From contig OZ024742.1 of the NCBI GenBank assembly GCA_964016885.1, positions 34,224,001 to 34,288,000 on the forward strand: a DNA stretch of 64,000 bases. Direction: 5' to 3'. This document shows, in pieces, positions 5,856 to 57,953 of this stretch. The DNA comes from Eledone cirrhosa. Lineage: Eukaryota. How positions within the stretch are numbered: position 1 is the first letter of the stretch; each line of letters begins with the position of its first letter. The position numbers were made by a program, and so were the translations under genes. The notes under the pieces are model-generated. The model searched no databases. It worked only from the letters and a program-made list of their open reading frames with translations, and was not told where the DNA came from.

Positions 5856-6062
5856 ATATATATATATATATAAATAACGGCGATGAATTAGTTTTGCGAA
5901 GTTTTTTATATGAAATCGTGTGTCGAAACAAATATTGTTTTAATTGTTATATTTGTGTAATAATATTGCCAGAATTAATAATAGAACACACTCACTGTTT
6001 GGTTGGTTTTCGCTTCTGTATCTTTTATATCAGTTAATTTAATTTACACGGTCCTCAATGTT

Positions 6063-7979
6063 AACAATGGCATACCACCCTTGTATGGGCTCCGCAAAGA
6101 CCATAAGACAGTCGACGACCCAACAACAGGACCACCAACAAGACCTGTATGCGGAGCCAATATAGCTAGCAACTACAGGATCTCCTACTTCCTCTCAATG
6201 GTTAAACGCCCGATAATCAAGATGTCCCCAGATGTAAATGACAACACAGAGGATCTCTTCAGCGGAATCAGTGAGTGCAACAAAAACAAAAACCTATCCA
6301 ACTGCATAATAGGCAGTATGGACGTGGTATCACTATACCCATACATTAACATTGATTTTGCTGTGGAAAAATGTGTGGAGATGATCATTGAGAGTGAGGT
6401 GGAGTTCTGCGACGTCGACACAGACGAACTGGGCCTCCTACTTAGACTTACCTATGTCACTTACTATCTAGACAGCCATGACCTTAGACGTTTCTGCCCC
6501 AGTAGACCCATAAGAGGTAGACCTCCCCCCACCATAACCTCAATGGCAAAAAAGACTCCCATGGGAAGGTGGACTGGGTGGACCAAAGCCATACGGACTC
6601 CCCAAAACAATGATCAGGTAAGAAAAATGGTCACACATGCAATAGGGGCTAGTATTAAAACTACCCTAAAGGGCCAAATATTCAAATTCAACGAGAAGAT
6701 CTACACCCAAAATAAGGGAGCAGCCATTGGCGTCAGCATAGCTGATGACGTTGCCAACCTTTTTATGGTATGGTGGGAAAGGAAACTCAAAAATCTCCTT
6801 GATGAGAGCTCCATAGACCTCATCATGTACTCTCGTTACGTAGACGACATCAATATAGTAATAAGGACATCCCCACAAGAGAGTACTAACAAGTTTGATT
6901 TAGAACGTAGCACAATGGAAAGCATCCAGCAGATAGCTAATTCCATACACCAGAGTATAACTGTAACTATCGACTACCCTTCCAAATACCCTAACAATAG
7001 ACTGCCGGTATTAGACACGGAACTCTGGATTGACACTATAAATGAGAGAGCCCAAATTCTCCACTCACACTACGCTAAACCCATGGCCTCCAAATACCTG
7101 ATACTCAAAAACTCAGGAAGTGCTAAGTTTAATATTCTGATCGCAGACTTGGTACGAGTGATGAAGAACGTATCCCGCACGTGCGACCCAACAGAAATGG
7201 AAATACACATCCAAAACTTCATCAACCGCATGCAGTTCTCTGGCTACAACCAAAGAGACAGAATCAGAGTATACGAAGGAGCCACGGAGAAGTATAAGAC
7301 CCTCATAGAACTGAACATGAAAGGAATTTTCCCATTATATAGGAGCAAATCATGGAATAGCTTAGATAGGGCTAGACATAAGATAGGGAAAGCCACCTGA
7401 TGGTACGACAACCAGAGATACCAGAGTGTCATGTTTGTGGACGCTACCCCTGGAGGGAAATTAGCTAACCAGTGTAGAAAGGCCCTGAGAAAGACCCACT
7501 TAAAGATTAAGGTGGTAGAAAAGCCAGGACCCACCATAAAATCCCTGATCAGCAAAACCTACCCTTTTAAGAAAACCCACTGTACTAATAGGAAATGTAT
7601 CATATGTAAGGTAAACCGTCGGATAAACTGTAAAACTAGAAACGTAGTCTATAGCATAAGATGTACAGAAGGTACTTGCAGAAACATGACAACAAGATAC
7701 ATAGGCGAGACAGCTCGTAGCATAGGTGAAAGGATAGACAAACACTGGGGGGAATTAAAAGGACGAAAAAACGGTTCAGTACTATACGAACATGCCAGAC
7801 AACATGACCGTAACATAGACAACATAGAAATTAGAATAATATTTAAACATAGAAATGACCCAGCAGTTAGGCAAATCAGAGAGGCCAGCGAAATAGAACT
7901 TAGAAGGTCAAGGCTAAACAGAAAAAATGAATGGAATAACAACACCCAAACAAACAACACTGACCTAAGAGCAGTATAA
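6063..7979 (+). pseudogene. PLE reverse transcriptase + C-terminal GIY-YIG endonuclease, one frame split by a single TGA (7398-7400)
   Basis: LYGLRKDHK, RPVCGA, GSMDVVSLYP, QNKGAAIG, RYVDD, LPVLD; EN NVVYSIRC...C...YIGETARSIGERIDKH...EH (CCHH); ORFs 6003 and 7431 share the same frame. Confidence 0.92.
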
Positions 7980-8246
7980 ATAAATAAATAAATAGATAAA
8001 TAAATAAATAAATACATATACAAGCACAATAACAATAAACACATATAAACACACACTAGTAAACTAAGATAGAATACAATAACCAAAACACAGTCACCGA
8101 AACACGAACACACCTCAAACACTATACACACACGCAAACGCATGCGCAGAGAAGAAGACAAACATAATAAATAAATAAATAAATAAATAAACGGATTAAA
8201 TAAAGATGGCGTAGACATACAATACAACAGGGGGAAACATAATAGC

Positions 8247-8289
8247 ACCACTGACGATGTTGCAGATGTGCAACGAACGAACTCTGTTA
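8247..8289 (+). ncRNA. degenerate hammerhead in PLE pseudo-LTR
   Basis: CTGACGA-T-GTTGCA-GATG-TGCAAC-GAAC (GAAA in the sister copy at 16239). Confidence 0.55.
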
Positions 8290-8484
8290 GACTATATATA
8301 TGTGTTTTGTGTCTATATTATATCTGTAATTTTGACCGTTGGTCAGTTAATGGTAAACATTGAGGACCGAGTAAATTAAATTAACTGATATAAAAGATAC
8401 AGAAGCGAAAACCAACCAAACAGTGAGTGTGTTCTGTTATTAATTCTGGCAATATTATTACACAAATATGACCATCCCGAAGTA

Positions 8485-8596
<112 letters not shown>

Positions 8597-14630: not shown

Positions 14631-14661
<31 letters not shown>

Positions 14662-15570
14662 ATATTTGGGGAGGGTCATATTTGCGTAATATTGCCAGAA
14701 TTAATAACAGAACACACTCACTGTTTGGTTGGTTTTCGCTTCTCGCTGTCTTTTATATATATATATCTGCGATCTAACTTACTCGGTCCTCAATGTTGCC
14801 ATTGACTGACCGGCGGTCAAAAATAATACAGATACAATATAGACAAACACATATATATATAGTTTACATAAATCTTTCGTTGCACATCTGCAACATCGTC
14901 AGTGGTGTTATATTCATTGTTCCTCCTGTTGTGTTGTATGTCTACGCCATTTTTTTTTTTTTTTTGTTCAGTCTGTCTATATATTTATTTATTTATTTGC
15001 TTGTTTGTTTATCTTATTTTATTTTGTCTTCTTTGCGCATGCGTTTGCGTGTGTGTATAGTGTTATGTGTGATGTGTGATGTGTGACTAGTGTGTATAGT
15101 GTTGTCTGCTGGGTGACTAGTGTGTGTTTATGTGCTTGTGTATGTATTTATTTATCTTATTTTATTTAATTTAATTTACTTATTTATTTATACTTCTCTT
15201 AGGTCAGTGTTGTTTGTTTGGGTGTTGTTGTTGTTCCACTCATTCTTTCTGTTTAGCTTTGGTCTTCTAATTTCTATTTCACTGGCCTCTCTGATTTGCC
15301 TATCTGCTGGGTCATTCCTATGTTTAGATATTATTCTAATTTCTATGTTGTCTATGTTACCGTCATGATGTTGTCTAGCATGTTCGTATAGTACTGACCC
15401 GTTTTTTCGTCCTTTTAGTTCCCCCCAGTGTTGGTCTATCCTTTCACCTATGCTACGAGCTGTCTCACCTATGTATGTTGTTGTCGTGTTTCTGCAAGTA
15501 CCCTCTGTACATCTTATGCTATAGACTACGTTTCTAGTTTTACAGTTTTATCCCCCCGGATAAACTGTAA

Positions 15571-15930
15571 AACTGTAAAACTAGAAACGTAGTCTATAGC
15601 ATAAGATGTACAGAGGGTACTTGCAGAAACACGACAACAACATACATAGGTGAGACAGCTCGTAGCATAGGTGAAAGGATAGACCAACACTGGGGGGAAC
15701 TAAAAGGACGAAAAAACGGGTCAGTACTATACGAACATGCTAGACAACATCATGACGGTAACATAGACAACATAGAAATTAGAATAATATCTAAACATAG
15801 GAATGACCCAGCAGATAGGCAAATCAGAGAGGCCAGTGAAATAGAAATTAGAAGACCAAAGCTAAACAGAAAGAATGAGTGGAACAACAACAACACCCAA
15901 ACAAACAACACTGACCTAAGAGAAGTATAA
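15571..15930 (+). pseudogene. PLE GIY-YIG endonuclease domain (5'-truncated; mirror copy on the minus strand in the left arm)
   Basis: NCKTRNVVYSIRCTEGTCRNTTTTYIGETARSIGERIDQH...; close match to 7626-7979. Confidence 0.85.
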
Positions 15931-16210
15931 ATAAATAAGTAAATTAAATTAAATAAAATAAGATAAATAAATACATACACAAGCACATAAACACACACTA
16001 GTCACCCAGCAGACAACACTATACACACTAGTCACACATCACACATCACACATAACACTATACACACACGCAAACGCATGCGCAAAGAAGACAAAATAAA
16101 ATAAGATAAACAAACAAGCAAATAAATAAATAAATATATAGACAGACTGAACAAAAAAAAAAAAAAATGGCGTAGACATACAACACAACAGGAGGAACAA
16201 TGAATATAAC

Positions 16211-16252
16211 ACCACTGACGATGTTGCAGATGTGCAACGAAAGATTTATGTA
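16211..16252 (+). ncRNA. hammerhead motif in pseudo-LTR (mirror copy 14865-14906, minus)
   Basis: ACCA-CTGACGA-T-GTTGCA-GATG-TGCAAC-GAAA-GATT-TA-TGT; core and stem II intact, stems I and III weak. Confidence 0.6.
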
Positions 16253-16518
16253 AACTATATATATATGTGTTTGTCTATATTGTATCTGTATTATTTTTGA
16301 CCGCCGGTCAGTCAATGGCAACATTGAGGACCGAGTAAGTTAGATCGCAGATATATATATATAAAAGACAGCGAGAAGCGAAAACCAACCAAACAGTGAG
16401 TGTGTTCTGTTATTAATTCTGGCAATATTACGCAAATATGACCCTCCCCAAATATAACAATATCTGTTTCGACACACGATTTCATATAAAAAACCTCGCA
16501 AAACTAATTCATCGCCGC

Positions 16519-23050: not shown

Positions 23051-23315
23051 TTGGGAGACACAAAGCAGACCTTGTTAAGAAATGGCTGGCGAATTTGAAA
23101 ATTAGGTAGAAACATGTGCTTATTTTACTAGATAGAATTAGTTAGTTGGGATTTTTAAAAAAATGCTCTGAATGGAAAAAAAAAATGATGAGTATTTACG
23201 GAGATGGAACACGAACCGACATCTTTGGTTTGTCAGTCCAATGTGTTACCATTACACCACCACGCCACCCAAGCCTTCTGCCATTCAATTAGAAGATATG
23301 TACCATGGCAGGTAT
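23051..23315 (-). mobile_element. TA-anchored repeat containing a tRNA-like fold (23198-23266)
   Basis: Reverse complement TGGTGTAATGGTAACAC-A-TTGGA-CTGACAA-ACCAA-AGATG-TCGGTTCGTGTTCC followed by body and tail shared with 23332-23586. Confidence 0.7.
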
Positions 23316-23331
23316 ATATTTGTATATAAAT

Positions 23332-23586
23332 AGGGAGACACAAAGCAGACTTTGTTTAGAAACGGCTAGCGAATTTGAAAATTAGGTAGTAACATGTGCT
23401 TACGCTGTAAGCATCCCACTCGTGTTGGTGTAATGGTAAAACCTGGTCCGGCAAACCAAAGATGTGGGTTCATGTCCCGTGTACAGCAATACTCATCCTT
23501 TTTCTAACCAGAGGGTCTTTTAAAATCCCAAATAACAGACTAATTCTATTTAGTCAAATACAGCGTAAGCACACGTTGCTATCTTA
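23332..23586 (+). mobile_element. head-to-head element with tRNA-like fold (23419-23488)
   Basis: Left arm 23332-23408 is the inverted 3' end plus tail; the right part has A-box TGGTGTAATGG, B-box GGTTCATGTCC and ends in (TA)n. Confidence 0.7.
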
Positions 23587-23592
23587 TATATA

Positions 23593-24342
23593 TTTGTATA
23601 TGGTTAATTATGCTAATTAGAAGAAGAAATAGTATATATTTTAATATCTGATGATTCTAAAGACATGATTTATGATATAATGCTCTGATTTTTTTATTTT
23701 AATTTATTAATTCTTCATAGAACTTAAAAGTGAACAGTTGCAACATATATATATCTTTAACTTTATGTATATGATAACCTTTATATTTAATAATCTCCCA
23801 ATTGGTTGAGATTAAATTTGGCGATATATGGCTGCGCTTTCTATCAGCAAGCCTACCCGCCATAAGCAACCAATCACACTCTTTCTCTCTGGCTGGAACA
23901 CAGCTACATAGCGATTTTTAGCCATTTTTGAATCTAAATTTGGCGGGATCGGATAGAAAAACTAGATGTCTGATTTTGAGTTTATCTCCTGATGAAACCT
24001 AACTCTGGACATTCATATTATTTGGAAGTCCTAAATAAGGAAGAAACCATGGTAGAGATATAATTACGGTATGTGCGCATTTCTTCTAAGTTTAATTTTA
24101 CTACTAATTGTGTGTGGTTGGTGGTATATTTAGTTGGATTCTACATGCTGTCGAAATGTTGGATAAATAATGGAACGGGGCCGACGCGAAGAGGCTACGA
24201 TCGATTATTTGTCGGAGATTTCCCCATAAGAAAATTTATTCTTATAGCTTGTTGGGATGGATTTTGTATATGGTTAATTATGCTAATTAGAAGAAGAAAT
24301 AGTATATATTTTAATATCTGATGATTCTAAAGACATGATTTA

Positions 24343-24349
<7 letters not shown>
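23593..24349 (+). mobile_element. ORF-less 670-bp unit with 87-bp terminal direct repeat and one HHR (retrozyme-like / non-autonomous PLE)
   Basis: 23593-23679 = 24263-24349; HHR 23983-24060; TA-rich flanks. Confidence 0.75.
23983..24060 (+). ncRNA. type-I hammerhead ribozyme
   Basis: TATCTC-CTGATGA-AA-CCT...GGAC...GTCC...AGG-AA-GAAA-CCATGG-TA-GAGATA; palindromic stem III. Confidence 0.8.
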
Positions 24350-24396
<47 letters not shown>

Positions 24397-24402
<6 letters not shown>

Positions 24403-24797
24403 AGATCAAAAGATGGTTAAAGGAGTTCCATGTATTTTATTATGCGCATTTCAAAAACAAACATCATCATGCAATAATATTTGTGTTTTCATCAGATAAA
24501 ACAGGAGAACATGATATGAAGGCTAAAAAACACTTGTGGATAGTGCAGTTTTAAATCAACATATCCACAAGTGTTTTTTAGCCTTCATATCATGTTCTCC
24601 TGTTTTATCTGATGAAAACACAAATATTATTGCATGATGATGTTTGTTTTTGAAATGCGCATAATAAAATACATGGAACTCCTTTAACCATCTTTTGATC
24701 TTATATTATGTATACTCCAGTCCTACAAACTGTAGAGTGCTTCTTATCCGATATCTGCATTGCTTTATTGTACTACAATAAAACTCACCTCCTACAT
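24397..24797. mobile_element. TA-embedded asymmetric palindrome with an HHR on each arm (24433-24503 -, 24601-24671 +)
   Basis: Arms 24397-24542 / 24562-24708; TGTTTTAT-CTGATGA-...-GAAA-TGCGCA-TA-ATAAAATA; ~88-nt tail on the right only. Confidence 0.85.
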
Positions 24798-43733: not shown

Positions 43734-43772
<39 letters not shown>

Positions 43773-44885
43773 GATAAATCTACCAAGAGTTTACGGTAGT
43801 GTCCAATCCGTATGAAGAACTCAATGTATTCCGGATATCATGGAAAGAAGAGATGTAATGAAAATCCACTTTCGGTGAAAGATAAACGGTATACAGAGTC
43901 AAGATAAAATATTAAACAAATAATGAACAAACAATTCCTTATATTAAACAAAAAAAGTTCACTATTTAACGATCGTTTCTAGGGTATACATGTGTTATAA
44001 TTGGTATGCATATTTAACAGATCTATGTACAAAATTATACAAAATTATACAAATTATCAAGATTAAATATACATACCTAACTCATATATACGCCGTCTTC
44101 AGAAATAATGAAGTATATTTATTGATAATAACAACAATTCAAAATATCAGTTCAAAATTGACCAATGAAAACACAAAGGGTTAAAAGCAGTTTGGTGTGT
44201 GTATATACATGTAAAAACCTTACACATATTTTACAATAATGTGTGTATAATTTGTATGTGCATACTAAAAAGATGGATGCAAACACAAAATTTCAAGGTT
44301 AATATCTCTGTAAGCTTAATGCGCTGATAAGATACGCAATGATACTTATGGAGTCAAGCATATAAATATATTTTTTTCATACTCACACATATCAGTATAA
44401 TCACACATACATGTGCGTATATGCATAAATATACACATAACCACGAACATACAAACACACACACTCCCCCACTCACATTTATATATGTGGATATAAAATC
44501 ATAAGCAAATAGAAATTAAGTCACTCACATAAAACACTGGCACACACATTTTTCAAGATCAAGATACAGAAATTAGGTGGGAGGGGGGGGGGGGGAGGGG
44601 TCAGTATTAGATTGTCAGACCAGACTGCCTAATATAAATGTATCTATAAATTAAGAAAAATAAAAAAATAAAAACAATAAAATATAATAAATATAATATA
44701 ATGTACATACACATACATATATACATACACATACATACATGTACGCGCACATAGAGATATCTACACATACATACATACACACATACCTATACAGTCATAC
44801 ACACACATACATTTACACGAACATACACATACACATATAAAAAGATATAAATACACACACACACACGCGCAACACATACACACAT

Positions 44886-44938
<53 letters not shown>

Positions 44939-44945
44939 TAGACTC

Positions 44946-44980
<35 letters not shown>

Positions 44981-45272
44981 AACATATATATCCACACACT
45001 CATACCACCATAAATACACATACAAACACCCACATGTATATATATATATATATATATATCCACATACACACACTTACACATATATATACACACATATATA
45101 TACACATACACATATATATATACACACACATAAAAAACAGACATGCACATATATATATATATATATATATATTTCATTACTCATATATATACACATAGTA
45201 TATATACATACACAACCTCACTTATACACATATACACATAAGTTATATTACAATAATAATAAAGAATAATAT

Positions 45273-45325
<53 letters not shown>

Positions 45326-45419
45326 TACATACATACATACACATACATACATACACACAAATATATACATACATAAATACACACATACGAATAAAGACAT
45401 ATATTCACACATAGACACC

Positions 45420-45454
<35 letters not shown>

Positions 45455-45457
45455 CTG

Positions 45458-45505
<48 letters not shown>

Positions 45506-47050
45506 CACACACACACACACACACAGACACACATACACACTCACATATATATATATATATATGTGTATGTGAGTGTGCGCAAATACACATATATATACAC
45601 ACATATATATACACACATACATACAAACACACACAAACACATACATATGCATACGTGCACACACATATATCACATAGATACGAAGATAAACATATAAACA
45701 GAGAGACATACAAATATATACAGAACCCATATACACATACATACAAACACGCATATACATATACATACATATATACACATATATATATTCCTATATACAA
45801 GCATACACATACATACACATATATACATATACATACACATATACATACCACACATTCACATACACATACATATATAATACATATATATACATATATATAC
45901 ATACCTATGTATGTACAATCATATATACACACTCAATCTTACATTCATATTTACATGCTCATATATGTATTTTTATATTTAGAAATAAATACCAAAACCT
46001 ATATAGACACCCACCTACACATATATTCATACATATACGCTTACAAAAACAGATGATAATAGTATGGGGGAAAGGGGGGGGTTGGAGAAGGGGATCAAAG
46101 TAAATATATGTTTCAAGAAATATATAATATTTTCCGTATCTTAATTCAATGTATGTTCTTACATATTTTCAGTGCTAGGAAATACGAAATCTATGCATCT
46201 CAAAACAAAAAAGTATACCATTAATCATATGTTAACTAAACCAAAGATAGTCAACATATTGATTTCCAAGGTGTAAATTAGTTAGGTTTATAATATTTGA
46301 AGCAGAATTATGAAGTCAAACAGTAGTAGATTATTAATTACATTATAACTAAATTAAAGTTAATAACGTTATGGTATCAATATTAGGAGATGAATTTAGT
46401 AATAGGGAAAAGAAACCCAAATAAAAATAAAATAAAGTATTACATCGGTAGTAGCATATAAATTATATGTTAACTAAATTAAAAATTATATATTTATTTC
46501 AATAGTATACGTTAATTAGTATATGTTAATTAGGTATACAATACATAAAGCAGATATTGTATTTCATCAATAGCATAATATAATTATATGCAAATAAAAA
46601 TCAAAATTAATACGCATACATATACATATACATACACATACACATATATATACATATACACACATATATATATATATATACATATATATACACATATATA
46701 CATATATACTCACATAAACAAACATACAGATACACATACACAACACACACATATACATATACATATATATATACATATCTTTTTCAAAAAATTGCACAGA
46801 ATATATTAACTAGGTATATATCCAAAACACATCCCATTCTATGATTACATGACATTCTGCAATTCGTCTGTACAAGGATACTAATTTTAAGCAAATTAAA
46901 ATTAAAGTTTTAGGTTGATTAAAACTAAAACCAAATAATAAATATATTTCCAAAATGTATATTAATTAGGTCTATAATACTAAAAATTCTTTCTCCGTCA
47001 TTGGATACATGATATTATTTTGTTATATTTTATCTGTAAAAGAATTATAA

Positions 47051-47081
<31 letters not shown>

Positions 47082-47269
47082 ATAATAAAAGGTTAAAATA
47101 AATTAAAATTAATCTATAAATTAAATTACTGAGTATATATTAGTAATATTTAAAGGTTTTTCAAAATTTATGATTACATAATATTTTCTCATCTGTAATA
47201 AAATATTAATTAAATTAAATTTACAGGTTAACTAACATTTAAATTAAATTAAATTCTAGAATAATGTTA

Positions 47270-49195
47270 TTAATTAGGTTTATAATATTTAAATGTTTTT
47301 TTTAGTTTATGATTACACGATATAATTAATTCCTGTCTTTTATTTAATAAGATATCCCTAGACCTCATTATTTCAAATAGTTCTTGGGAACATAATCTAC
47401 ATTCCTTTCTATTATTTTGATAAGGGGTGGCTCTTTTGAGCACACTCCAGGTCAAATCATATTTTATATTTTTATTTTTATAACTATTGATTTTTTCTGC
47501 TAGAGATGTTGTATTAGCCAGTGCGGCATTTTTAAAGCTATGTTTGTGGGTATTATACCTTGTCTTAAAATTGTTAGAGGTAGCTCCTATATATGAGCAA
47601 ATAGAATCTTTAGTTTTAACATTACATTTATAGACTATGTTGTTAACAAGACAATTCCCTTTTAATGGGCAGTTTGTTTTGTTTCTACAGTTACATCCTT
47701 TCGTTAATTCTGTATTTGAGGAGATATTATTGTTAATTTGATGTACTGGTGGTATACTTATGGTTTTCTTACATTTATATGCATTATATGCACTTATATT
47801 TTGTTTTATGTTATTTGTTGTAGAGTATGAGAATTTAACTGTAGACCTATTTAAGATTTGATGGTATTTGTGGTTTGGCGGGAAGTTTTTCTCAAGGATA
47901 TAAAAAAATTTTTTAGCAATATTATCCTTAACTTGTAAATTAAAAGGAGCATTATACCAAGTAACTCGTCTATTACGGTTTCTATGTTGTTTATTATTTT
48001 TATTATTTTTATATGTTGTATCATGATTTTTACTAGGAGGATTAATGTTAATGATATCACCACAACTATTTTTAGTTATATTTGTAGATTTAGGTGTTTT
48101 ATCTTTTTTATTAGGAGTTTTATTATTAATATTTATTATAGTTGTATGATGAGTAGTTTTTTGAGGGTTACTATACTTTATATTAGAAGATTTAGTATTT
48201 TGGGGTATACTGTGGGTGGCATTTAGGTGTGTACTTTTCATTTGGTGTTTGTTGGTAATATTATGCTGTATGCTTTCAGTATTTTTAGTAGAAGGTATAT
48301 ACTCTAATCTATTTTTGTGGCCACTTCTATCTAGAGCTTCATTATAAAAGGTCGCATTTTTATCAAATACATCTTGGTTAGAAGAAAGGTTAGAAATTCT
48401 AAGTGATATATTATATGCAAGGTTTTTAAGGATAGATTTAGGGTGATTAGATTGTGAGTGTATGTAATGTAAGTTTTGGTTAGGTTTATGGTAAGGTTGG
48501 TATATACCCGTAGCTAAATCTAAAGTTATATCTAGGAAATTTACTACTTTACTTGTTTTTTCAAAAGTAATATTAAGATTATAATAGTCTTTAAGGAAAG
48601 TTCTAATATGCTTTTTGTTTTTTTCGATTTCTGAAAGGCTAAGGTTGTTAGAAAGAAGAAGACAGTCATCACGATATAAACCACCTTTGAGGTGGGGAAA
48701 AGAGGCATTTATGTTGAAAAGGAGAAAGAGGCCCACAAGATCAGTAATTTGGGCGGAATCGCTTGAACCCATAGTAATATCAAAAAGATTACTGTATGTG
48801 TTTCTGGTCCAGTATTCATTCTGAAATTCAATAAGTGTTTGTCTAGCATGTGTAATAATGTTAATGTCATCCGAAGTTAAATTAGATCTATTTTTAGCAA
48901 ATATTAATGCTTTGTTCAGGAGTATGGGTGATATAGAAGAATAGTAATTATCTATATCAAATTGTAGGAAAGAAGCAGAAGATTTACACCTAATATTTTT
49001 AAACCAATTAATTACCTGGGAGGTGTTTTCCCAGAGTGGTAAAATAACGTATTTTCTTAATTGTGGGATGACTCTATCTAAAATTTTTTTGCTAATTATT
49101 CCAATATCTGATTTGGAGGGACATATAAGTCTAATAGAAGGATTAGAGTTAAAGTTAGATTTGTGATCTTTCAGGTTGAAGTGTGGTCTTTTCAA
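47270..49195 (-). CDS. PLE RT + GIY-YIG endonuclease, uninterrupted but 5'-truncated
   Basis: LKDHK...RLICPSKS, QFDIDNYYSSI, FDITMGS, YRDD, VNFLD, SNHP, WYNAP; CNCRNKTNC (CxCx5C) linker; IVYKC...YIGAT...RYNTH; C-terminal CRLC and SCNH; no CCHH. Confidence 0.92.
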   Translation of the reverse strand: MKRPHFNLKDHKSNFNSNPSIRLICPSKSDIGIISKKILDRVIPQLRKYVILPLWENTSQVINWFKNIRCKSSASFLQFDIDNYYSSISPILLNKALIFAKNRSNLTSDDINIITHARQTLIEFQNEYWTRNTYSNLFDITMGSSDSAQITDLVGLFLLFNINASFPHLKGGLYRDDCLLLSNNLSLSEIEKNKKHIRTFLKDYYNLNITFEKTSKVVNFLDITLDLATGIYQPYHKPNQNLHYIHSQSNHPKSILKNLAYNISLRISNLSSNQDVFDKNATFYNEALDRSGHKNRLEYIPSTKNTESIQHNITNKHQMKSTHLNATHSIPQNTKSSNIKYSNPQKTTHHTTIININNKTPNKKDKTPKSTNITKNSCGDIININPPSKNHDTTYKNNKNNKQHRNRNRRVTWYNAPFNLQVKDNIAKKFFYILEKNFPPNHKYHQILNRSTVKFSYSTTNNIKQNISAYNAYKCKKTISIPPVHQINNNISSNTELTKGCNCRNKTNCPLKGNCLVNNIVYKCNVKTKDSICSYIGATSNNFKTRYNTHKHSFKNAALANTTSLAEKINSYKNKNIKYDLTWSVLKRATPYQNNRKECRLCSQELFEIMRSRDILLNKRQELIISCNHKLKKTFKYYKPN

Positions 49196-50777
49196 TGTCT
49201 TTTTTTTTTTTTTTTTTTTTTTTTTATTATAATTCTTTTACAGATAAAATATAACAAAATAATATCATGTATCCAATGACGGAGAAAGAAATTTTAGTAT
49301 TATAGACCTAATTAATATACATTTTGGAAATATATTTATTATTTGGTTTTAGTTTTAATCAACCTAAAACTTTAATTTTAATTTGCTTAAAATTAGTATC
49401 CTTGTACAGACGAATTGCAGAATGTCATGTAATCATAGAATGGGATGTGTTTTGGATATATACCTAGTTAATATATTCTGTGCAATTTTTTGAAAAAGAT
49501 ATGTATATATATATGTATATGTATATGTGTGTGTTGTGTATGTGTATCTGTATGTATGTTTATGTGAGTATATATGTATATATGTGTATATATATGTATA
49601 TATATATATATATGTGTGTATATGTATATATATGTGTATGTGTATGTATATGTATATGTATGCGTATTAATTTTGATTTTTATTTGCATATAATTATATT
49701 ATGCTATTGATGAAATACAATATCTGCTTTATGTATTGTATACCTAATTAACATATACTAATTAACGTATACTATTGAAATAAATATATAATTTTTAATT
49801 TAGTTAACATATAATTTATATGCTACTACCGATGTAATACTTTATTTTATTTTTATTTGGGTTTCTTTTCCCTATTACTAAATTCATCTCCTAATATTGA
49901 TACCATAACGTTATTAACTTTAATTTAGTTATAATGTAATTAATAATCTACTACTGTTTGACTTCATAATTCTGCTTCAAATATTATAAACCTAACTAAT
50001 TTACACCTTGGAAATCAATATGTTGACTATCTTTGGTTTAGTTAACATATGATTAATGGTATACTTTTTTGTTTTGAGATGCATAGATTTCGTATTTCCT
50101 AGCACTGAAAATATGTAAGAACATACATTGAATTAAGATACGGAAAATATTATATATTTCTTGAAACATATATTTACTTTGATCCCCTTCTCCAACCCCC
50201 CCCTTTCCCCCATACTATTATCATCTGTTTTTGTAAGCGTATATGTATGAATATATGTGTAGGTGGGTGTCTATATAGGTTTTGGTATTTATTTCTAAAT
50301 ATAAAAATACATATATGAGCATGTAAATATGAATGTAAGATTGAGTGTGTATATATGATTGTACATACATATGTATGTATATATATGTATATATATGTAT
50401 TATATATGTATGTGTATGTGAATGTGTGGTATGTATATGTGTATGTATATGTATATATGTGTATGTATGTGTATGCTTGTATATAGGAATATATATATGT
50501 GTATATATGTATGTATATGTATATGCGTGTTTGTATGTATGTGTATATGGGTTCTGTATATATTTGTATGTCTCTCTGTTTATATGTTTATCTTCGTATC
50601 TATGTGATATATGTGTGTGTGTGTGCACGTATGCATATGTATGTGTTTGTGTGTGTTTGTATGTATGTGTGTATATATATGTGTGTATATATATGTGTAT
50701 TTGCGCACACTCACATACACATATATATATATATATATGTGAGTGTGTATGTGTGTCTGTGTGTGTGTGTGTGTGTG

Positions 50778-50827
<50 letters not shown>

Positions 50828-50828
50828 G

Positions 50829-50863
<35 letters not shown>

Positions 50864-50957
50864 GGTGTCTATGTGTGAATATATGTCTTTATTCGTATGT
50901 GTGTATTTATGTATGTATATATTTGTGTGTATGTATGTATGTGTATGTATGTATGTA

Positions 50958-51010
<53 letters not shown>

Positions 51011-51306
51011 ATATTATTCTTTATTATTATTGTAATATAACTTATGTGTATATGTGTATAAGTGAGGTTGTGTATGTATATATACTATGTGTATATATAT
51101 GAGTAATGAAATATATATATATATATATATATATGTGCATGTCTGTTTTTTATGTGTGTGTATATATATATGTGTATGTGTATATATATGTGTGTATATA
51201 TATGTGTAAGTGTGTGTATGTGGATATATATATATATATATATATATATACATGTGGGTGTTTGTATGTGTATTTATGGTGGTATGAGTGTGTGGATATA
51301 TATGTT

Positions 51307-51343
<37 letters not shown>

Positions 51344-51350
51344 GAGTCTA

Positions 51351-51403
<53 letters not shown>

Positions 51404-52178
51404 ATGTGTGTATGTGTTGCGCGTGTGTGTGTGTGTATTTATATCTTTTTATATGTGTATGTGTATGTTCGTGTAAATGTATGTGTGTGTATGACTGTAT
51501 AGGTATGTGTGTATGTATGTATGTGTAGATATCTCTATGTGCGCGTACATGTATGTATGTGTATGTATATCTGTATGTGTATGTACATTATATTATATTT
51601 ATTATATTTTATTGTTTTTATTTTTTTATTTTTCTTAATTTATAGATACATTTATATTAGGCAGTCTGGTCTGACAATCTAATACTGACCCCTCCCCCCC
51701 CCCTCCCACCTAATTTCTGTATCTTGATCTTGAAAAATGTGTGTGCCAGTGTTTTATGTGAGTGACTTAATTTCTATTTGCTTATGATTTTATATCCACA
51801 TATATAAATGTGAGTGGGGGAGTGTGTGTGTTTGTATGTTCGTGGTTATGTGTATATTTATGCATATACGCACATGTATGTGTGATTATACTGATATGTG
51901 TGAGTATGAAAAAAATATATTTATATGCTTGACTCCATAAGTATCATTGCGTATCTTATCAGCGCATTAAGCTTACAGAGATATTAACCTTGAAATTTTG
52001 TGTTTGCATCCATCTTTTTAGTATGCACATACAAATTATACACACATTATTGTAAAATATGTGTAAGGTTTTTACATGTATATACACACACCAAACTGCT
52101 TTTAACCCTTTGTGTTTTCATTGGTCAATTTTGAACTGATATTTTGAATTGTTGTTATTATCAATAAATATACTTCAT

Positions 52179-52323
52179 TATTTCTGAAGACGGCGTATAT
52201 ATGAGTTAGGTATGTATATTTAATCTTGATAATTTGTATAATTTTGTATAATTTTGTACATAGATCTGTTAAATATGCATACCAATTATAACACATGTAT
52301 ACCCTAGAAACGATCGTTAAATA
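52179..52323 (+). ncRNA. type-I hammerhead with 116-nt stem II (mirror 43963-44107, minus)
   Basis: TATTT-CTGAAGA-CGGCGTATATATG...GGTATGTATATTTAA...TTAAATATGCATACC...CATGTATACCCTA-GAAA-CGATCG-TT-AAATA. Confidence 0.8.
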
Positions 52324-52373
52324 GTGAACTTTTTTTGTTTAATATAAGGAATTGTTTGTTCATTATTTGTTTA

Positions 52374-52520
<147 letters not shown>

Positions 52521-57674: not shown

Positions 57675-57953
57675 CAAGCAAATTATAAACGTAAACATGT
57701 AAGTATGTTTTTAAACGGTGCGCGAGTTTGAAATTAGAAATTAGAAATTATAAGCTTTCACCGTATGTTTAGACTAAAGAAATTTCTAGCCTGATAGTGG
57801 GGTTTATAACCCTCGGAGAAATGGAAAAAGATGAGTGTTGCCGTACAACACTCATCTTTTTCCATTTCTCCGAGGGTTATAAACCCCACTATCAGGCTAG
57901 AAATTTCTTTAGTCTAAAAATACGGTGAAAGCTTATAATTTCTAATTTCTAAT
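57675..57953. mobile_element. asymmetric palindrome related to the tRNA-containing 23051/23332 family
   Basis: Arms 57734-57840 / 57846-57953; CAACACTCATCTTTTTCC...GAGGGTTATAAACCCC...TTTAGTC aligns with 23487-23560; tail includes AAACGGTGCGCGAGTTTGAAA as at 23358. Confidence 0.7.

Follow-up and report, generated by a model that had tools for sequence, protein, structure and literature searches.

Insertion at 23051-23587

The window analysed in this study, a stretch of 64,000 nucleotides from the AT-rich, 3.0 Gb genome of Eledone cirrhosa, carries a short insertion with two tRNA-like segments at 23051-23587. The following features were recognised within it:

23051..23312, minus strand: full unit of the old T58 subfamily (A), 82.9% identical to consensus positions 1-269
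23172..23193, minus strand: trailer with T run, the 3' strand of the helix and a potential Pol III terminator, recognised from its sequence
23196..23266, minus strand: tRNA-like cloverleaf with T at position 58 (Rfam RF00005, 34 bits; gathering threshold 29)
23267..23288, minus strand: purine-rich leader, trailer-pairing in consensus copies and decayed here (this copy folds at z -0.38)
23313..23329, minus strand: AT-rich head-to-tail junction joining two units, equal in length to the junction at locus L027 and one substitution apart from it
23330..23409, minus strand: 3' 80 nt of the tandem's upstream unit, 96% identical to consensus 190-269
23410..23587, plus strand: arm in inverted orientation, truncated at 5' and reaching to the short 3' end, 89% identical to consensus 50-218
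23422..23485, plus strand: second tRNA-like copy, inside the plus-strand arm (Rfam 19.2 bits, below gathering)

The full unit runs from 23312 to 23051 and stops at its long 3' end inside a TA-rich flank, while the six nucleotides preceding the tRNA-like part of the plus-strand arm deviate from the consensus. Neither tRNA-like copy was called by ARAGORN. An earlier note on this DNA had described two separate diverged copies and had taken 23330-23409 for the inverted arm. Both copies do match the Rfam tRNA model, but they belong to one composite insertion, made of a minus-strand partial tandem and a plus-strand inverted arm. A single event is the likely origin, although unproven, as the pieces differ in their identity to the consensus (96%, 83% and 89%). 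D-stem GTGT/ACAC and anticodon arm TTGGT-7-ACCAA, both given in that note, and T-loop TTCGTGT proved to be those of the subfamily consensus, on which the short end also lies about 100 nt behind the tRNA. The inverted arm, one-sided tail and TA flanks all hold. Directly to the right of the insertion, an exact 87-bp duplicate occupies 23593-23679 and 24263-24349.

Repeat family and its subfamilies

The insertion belongs to a repeat family whose unit is a non-coding monomer of 260-290 nt (longest open frame, 75 codons), found in three subfamilies. Subfamily A, that of the insertion above, has T at tRNA position 58, and subfamilies B and C have A58; the label A used here differs from the 'family A' of the earlier note. 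The unit measures 269 nt plus an AT-rich linker in A, 290 nt in B and 260 nt in C. Copies of A are about 90-96% identical to their consensus, and B is the youngest of the three. The layout comprises a leader, the cloverleaf, a run of five or six T residues, about 100 nt to the short end and a further 37-59 nt to the long end.

Exact 3'-body patterns matched the genome 199 times for A, 629 times for B and 1,234 times for C, and a tRNA-arm pattern matched 1,023 times, with no match for the backward controls of either kind. These matches count arms rather than loci and are lower bounds; well over a thousand sites carry the repeat, mostly in TA microsatellites. The tRNA-arm patterns gave some 340-410 more matches on the reverse than on the forward strand, which suggests a much larger array somewhere in the genome.

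Loci for detailed analysis, about 190 in total, were picked by the 3'-body pattern, avoiding a bias towards the tRNA. The B sample was drawn from the first 100 of the 629 matches, giving 80 loci after merging; the A sample holds 69 loci, from the top of the 199 listed minus two loci, and the C sample 45 loci, from the top of the 1,234 listed minus one. Break counts exclude two short stray matches in B and two in A, and the flank tests exclude five loci.

A third relative in the window, the palindrome at 57675-57953, turned out to be the same element in a younger subfamily, with its centre at tRNA positions 65-72:

57675..57847, minus strand: long-end arm of the young A58 subfamily, broken at about tRNA position 65, 98.9% identical to consensus 118-290
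57846..57953, plus strand: short-end arm of the young A58 subfamily, broken at about tRNA position 72, 99.1% identical to consensus 125-231

Penelope-like insertion pattern

[quoted passage not shown] The 3' ends of the units fall into two fixed classes, long and short, 37-59 nt apart, and the 5' breaks are variable and spread over the whole unit. Inverted arms were present at 51 of the 80 B loci and 44 of the 69 A loci; long and short ends were paired in 41 of these 51 and 29 of these 44, respectively, compared with none and one for two long ends. Tandem junctions amounted to 60 in 194 loci (19 in 80 for B, 17 in 69 for A and 24 in 45 for C, about half of the last from one array), and many copies pass the leader and the junction seamlessly, with no scar. 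At least one flank contained (TA)4 at 76 of 79 B, 54 of 67 A and 39 of 44 C loci, compared with 10-16% of control windows.

The earlier note had reported an absence of target site duplications (TSDs), which is incorrect. Duplications of 9-13 bp occur at non-microsatellite sites; among the 18 loci that have no microsatellite in their flanks, 6 carry a duplication of 11 bp or more, compared with 2 of 306 mismatched pairs. A strict test allowing an offset of up to 4 nt found none among the 18 loci; since units extend a few bases beyond the mapped end, the offset was widened to 19 nt, giving 6-7 of 18, two of these in AT-rich sequence of low complexity. The absence of poly(A) was borne out, with A8 at none of 233 long ends.

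In the Anolis element PAc, the PLE tail is reported as the stretch between two internal start sites of the reverse transcriptase (RT), with both target strands primed in vitro (PMC11167929). The tail of 37-59 nt observed here, as compared with 30-40 nt in print, counts against the PLE reading. Each of the three consensus folds has a predicted stem, with base pairs in A that differ from those in B and C, whose loop contains the short site, and this stem-loop may be a candidate protein-binding signal.

PLE-type mobilisation of a tRNA-containing, ribozyme-free unit is well supported by the loci chosen through the 3'-body pattern. Duplications of 9-13 bp, together with 5' truncation, are also compatible with LINE machinery, that is, with a LINE-mobilised SINE carrying twin-priming inversions, and a MITE or Helitron derivative, or a solo pLTR with a captured tRNA SINE, might be considered as well; as the partner search found no autonomous element, a solo pLTR of an unseen PLE keeps a small probability. 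However, fixed pairs of long and short 3' ends, seamless tandems, the lack of poly(A) and variable 5' ends all speak against this group of explanations, as does the failure of any of the 80 B loci to run from the unit into a shared coding sequence. The group as a whole is regarded as very improbable, and by the end statistics the ordinary LINE-SINE, MITE or Helitron version is largely refuted. Near-perfect inverted repeats fill the window, which might raise the suspicion of assembly or read fold-back artefacts, but the arms within a B locus differ by 2.2%, much like copies at different loci (2.0%), they terminate at two distinct fixed positions and TSDs are present at some loci, leaving an artefact scarcely credible.

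Variant sharing in B was 13% within loci and 1.3% between loci, indicating a common template that may be either a circle or a multimer. At loci L063 and L085 two tandem units lack the same stretch of about 12-20 nt at the junction, which is what a variant circle, or else a source locus already in tandem, should produce. A C-subfamily array of about 26 units (G000:C1:131458900-131465800, L321-L322), which retains the PLE pattern at its ends, with an inverted short-end arm and a long end in TA, was considered as evidence of rolling-circle copying and rejected: it is old (15% pairwise divergence) and its variants are common to subsets of units, so that it was amplified after insertion and is uninformative on this point. 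The array has the appearance of a retroelement turning into a minisatellite.

tRNA-like fold and the leader-trailer helix

Younger copies score 33-47 bits against the Rfam tRNA model and are called tRNA-Ala(GGC) or tRNA-Ser(GGA) by ARAGORN. The tRNA part is not an unrelated sequence nested in a few copies, being within the unit in all three subfamilies; it is internal, behind a leader of 47-55 nt, and not at the 5' end. Compared with the tRNA-Gln of the genome, the sole isotype compared, 42-43 of 72 positions are identical, mostly in the D arm. A cluster of tRNA-Gln genes was also observed (G000:C1:168210000-168276000, L328-L338), with interspersed Gln-like copies bearing a CTA anticodon (ARAGORN 'Pyl') that are possibly amber-suppressor-like pseudogenes.

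Each of the three subfamilies has an intact A box. The B box is of canonical form in B and C, and in A, the subfamily of the two copies for which the earlier note had claimed both boxes, it has T at position 58. The anticodon loop differs between subfamilies, making a role in translation unlikely, and the stems outside the promoter boxes are kept together with the leader-trailer helix. About 10 nt behind the tRNA there is a T run, T6 in the A consensus and T5 in B and C; it is the only run of at least five T in the B and C units, and A has two T6 runs.

The purine-rich leader is predicted to pair with the trailer over 17-21 bp, prolonging the acceptor stem across a 3-nt bulge. The predicted duplex has an energy of -22 to -24 kcal/mol, which was equalled by 0, 2 and 0 of 1000 leader shuffles, and four near-consensus copies fold at z of -3.4 to -4.5, compared with about -0.4 for the decayed copy in the window. 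In subfamily A the helix has two extra bases on both strands, a balanced 2-nt indel, and in a C variant a G-U pair becomes A-U. These are few independent changes, taken from three related consensus sequences, and an old inversion could also have given rise to the helix. As both strands are needed, the helix forms only in RNA that contains the leader and the trailer.

The lack of a hammerhead stated in the earlier note is upheld: no Rfam ribozyme was matched in five loci, and the CTGANGA core is absent from both strands of the three doubled consensus units. It is about an even call that the tRNA part is mainly a folded RNA module capped by the long helix, which would likely stabilise the RNA; a Pol III promoter, the main alternative role, has a smaller though appreciable chance.

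The earlier note had proposed a SINE. This is not supported if taken to mean a Pol III RNA that begins at the tRNA and is copied in full: the tRNA is internal and has a T5 or T6 run about 10 nt behind it, copies pass seamlessly through leader and junction, and no pile-up of breaks occurs at +1. Neither a plain Pol III SINE nor processing by RNase P/Z fits when the T run after the tRNA is taken together with the lack of pile-up at +1 or at the RNase Z site. A modified version, which keeps PLE mobilisation and gives the tRNA part mainly the role of a Pol III promoter, would make the element a PLE counterpart of SINEs and TRIMp3. Transcription beginning at +1 would run past the first T5 and stop at the next, giving a terminally redundant RNA, and the RT would jump from the 5' to the 3' tRNA copy and so rebuild tandems. 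The conserved boxes and the single T run per B and C unit favour this version; a tRNA-like Pol III RNA would also be a natural methylation substrate, and there is a precedent among LTR elements in Helenus (PMC10886601). Against it, the events per nucleotide at risk at +1 were 5/429 (B), 1/402 (C) and 6/555 (A), with 0.6-1.1 per 100 nt in the leader; an altered B box (T58) and two T6 runs did not keep subfamily A from spreading; and the non-promoter stems and the leader-trailer helix were kept with a variable anticodon loop. A linear RNA from +1, whether made by Pol III or by RNase P, is not the main template, given the scarless crossing and the lack of enrichment at +1 or 74, unless the RT jumps efficiently or the RNA was circularised. 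On balance a chiefly promoter role is considered rather unlikely.

Stop of 5' breaks at A58

The 5' breaks are concentrated within the tRNA part of the two A58 subfamilies. Breaks at tRNA positions 58-65 were present in 56 of 114 segments in B and 32 of 78 in C, compared with 4 of 92 in A; counted by locus, the figures were 39/72, 24/43 and 4/64 (Fisher test, 7e-10 and 1e-8). Positions 48-57, just upstream, had one break in B and none in C. Break rates at positions 66-74 were mildly raised in B and C (1.8 and 1.3 per 100 nt, with the trailer at 0.3-0.5), a point against the reading proposed here. Subfamily A has T58, yet it shares the T-stem and the CATG palindrome with B and C and has the most stable cloverleaf (-15.7 kcal/mol versus -11.7 and -13.9 in the other two), so that neither of these accounts for the stop. 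The dependence of the pile-up on A58 suggests that the template RNA contained a tRNA which was modified or folded.

N1-methylation of A58 blocks base pairing and stops the RT of HIV-1, and the stop is gone in TRMT6 mutants, according to a review (PMC13191261). It is, by a modest degree, probable that the same mark causes the stop observed here. A tertiary fold of the T-loop or a bound protein is a less probable cause and a cut in the T-loop slightly less probable again; fold and cut would leave the same edge and are thus rivals to the methyl-mark reading. Against the methyl-mark reading, misincorporation at A58 in read-through copies was not clear (1/72 in B and 3/50 in C, compared with 0.7% and 2.5% at other A sites). 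Most breaks lie at 63-64 and not at 59, which means that trimming to microhomology must be assumed. A58 is absent from one subfamily only, the older A, in which position 59 is different too and for which a different RT may have been at work.

A cut by a host nuclease in the T-loop of the tRNA mimic, or by RNase P/Z at its borders, would replace hammerhead self-cleavage, and the pile-up would then represent the 5' ends of RNA. This explanation gains from the position of the tRNA, which lies upstream of the short start site by about 100 nt, like the hammerhead cut site reported for PAc (PMC11167929), from the identical edge at 59 expected of a T-loop cut and from the fact that ends re-ligated into circles would be traceless. 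On the other hand, hammerhead cleavage is reported to be dispensable for PAc in vitro (PMC11167929). The form of this explanation suggested by the earlier note, recruitment of RNase P/Z, is not supported by the breaks, which show no spike at +1 or after base 73 (one event at base 74 in B, none in C) and an A58-dependent spike at 58-65. A paired leader and trailer is also likely to hinder RNase P/Z, which counts against cutting at the borders. Nuclease cutting as a whole is accordingly viewed as improbable.

Proposed mechanism and search for a partner

The element is most likely a PLE-dependent tRNA mimic, a non-coding tandem unit copied in trans by the RT and endonuclease of a PLE. The template would likely be a multimeric or circular RNA, probably treated as a tRNA by host enzymes. 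The PLE protein would nick both strands of AT-rich DNA and prime at two internal RNA sites, as does that of Anolis PAc in vitro, after which the RT would copy towards the tRNA, with 41-49% of passes stopping at A58. Two stalled cDNAs might then join through the CATG palindrome at 63-66, yielding palindromes such as 57675-57953; a block at A58 with trimming to this palindrome explains why that copy is centred there. Read-through of A58 would yield tandems such as 23051-23409.

A search for an autonomous PLE sharing the 3' end found none, a point against this mechanism: the 3' part of the unit was no closer than shuffles to the ends of seven PLE-type families in the 64-kb window, and 34 non-microsatellite 5' flanks held no common upstream sequence joined to the unit. 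Same-strand tRNA matches 2.4 kb apart at L061 and L062, a potential pLTR-ORF-pLTR arrangement, were found to be segmental duplications. PLE ORF fragments near units, detected by tblastn, were likewise rejected as partners, with TA tracts or other sequence intervening in all eight loci viewed.

The genome contains two active PLE families, each with numerous long open frames that are nearly identical, and these families could supply the RT and endonuclease for the unit; in the comparison of family ends neither had sequence in common with it. The PLE ORFs of the window were not classified by Pfam. One family is represented at 43760-52382 by a 5'-truncated copy with inverted 3.2-kb arms; a hammerhead-like core lies close to the 3' end, and about 135 nt separate the long end from the short one. 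The family has frames of 830 aa, with 68 copies scored at 98-100%, and its motifs, compared by eye with the supplement of PMC8557442, resemble those of the Hydra clade. The second, at 5985-8517 and 14654-16463, combines GIY-YIG-like motifs at the C-terminus with a hammerhead core and a tail measuring about 58 nt, and has young relatives whose open frames reach 1217 aa. Further short TA-anchored families with hammerhead-like cores (CTGATGA...GAAA) were observed at 24390-24714, 17092, 19354, 21107, 38160 and 38711.

Comparison with known systems

Animal non-LTR retrozymes are non-coding monomers of 170-400 nt, occurring as dimers to long arrays, which have been proposed to be non-autonomous PLE derivatives (PMC7229834; bioRxiv 10.64898/2026.07.22.740005). 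The element resembles them in its 260-290-nt monomers in tandem, with one array of about 26 units, but in place of a hammerhead it has a tRNA-like fold closed by a long helix; the word 'tRNA' does not occur in the main text of the preprint (bioRxiv 10.64898/2026.07.22.740005). Non-autonomous Chlamys PLEs such as MRC1 likewise depend on PLEs and lack a ribozyme, are inserted head to tail and target microsatellites (PMC8557442). These dependants generally share 3' sequence with autonomous families and have no tRNA module in the descriptions given there (PMC8557442), whereas no similarity to a partner was found here. The line-wrapped supplement of that paper, which covers limited clades, showed neither of two short motifs taken from the unit (PMC8557442).

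The PAc Poseidon element of Anolis is alike in that its tail is set by two internal RT start sites, both strands are primed and targets are AT-rich but, unlike the unit, it is autonomous, with an ORF and a hammerhead (PMC11167929). Helenus and TRIMp3 likewise represent non-SINE, non-autonomous retroelements with an internal tRNA-like sequence, although they depend on LTR elements and have a PBS, a PPT and TSDs of 4-5 bp, and 'Penelope' is not a word of the text describing them (PMC10886601). The unit has variable 5' ends, inversions and 9-13-bp TSDs, as opposed to the two fixed-end LTRs of TRIMp3. It also differs from MITE and Helitron derivatives, as its ends are not both fixed. The octopus OK, OR1 and OR2 families, tRNA-derived SINEs reportedly described by Ohshima and Okada in 1994, are said to be short and of high copy number, with A and B boxes. 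The element shares these three features with tRNA-derived SINEs, but the internal tRNA, the two 3' ends, the tandems and the lack of a LINE tail set it apart.

The element works like a retrozyme or a non-autonomous Chlamys element, but is neither a retrozyme, lacking a hammerhead, nor a SINE, having an internal tRNA and two 3' ends. No PLE-dependent tRNA element was found described in the full-text literature searched, which included few subscription papers and lay outside Repbase and Dfam, and an earlier entry, unnamed or under a different name, is possible. With some reservation, and at rather less than an even chance, it is proposed that these are undescribed, widespread PLE parasites in which a tRNA mimic borne by a long helix replaces the hammerhead, and that germline m1A58 halts the RT about half of the time, so that genomic copies would record the mark at base resolution and the T58 subfamily would be an escape variant.

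Implications

Young copies that ARAGORN calls tRNA-Ser or tRNA-Ala genes would inflate tRNA annotations. As a natural substrate of 290 nt with two mapped start sites, the unit makes RNA recognition by PLEs testable in the existing in vitro assay. If the present reading is true, tRNA-derived passengers are carried by PLEs as well as by LINEs and LTR elements. Furthermore, the dependence of the stop on A58 suggests that a retroelement can be restricted by a modification of RNA, and that this modification can be read from the genomic copies alone.
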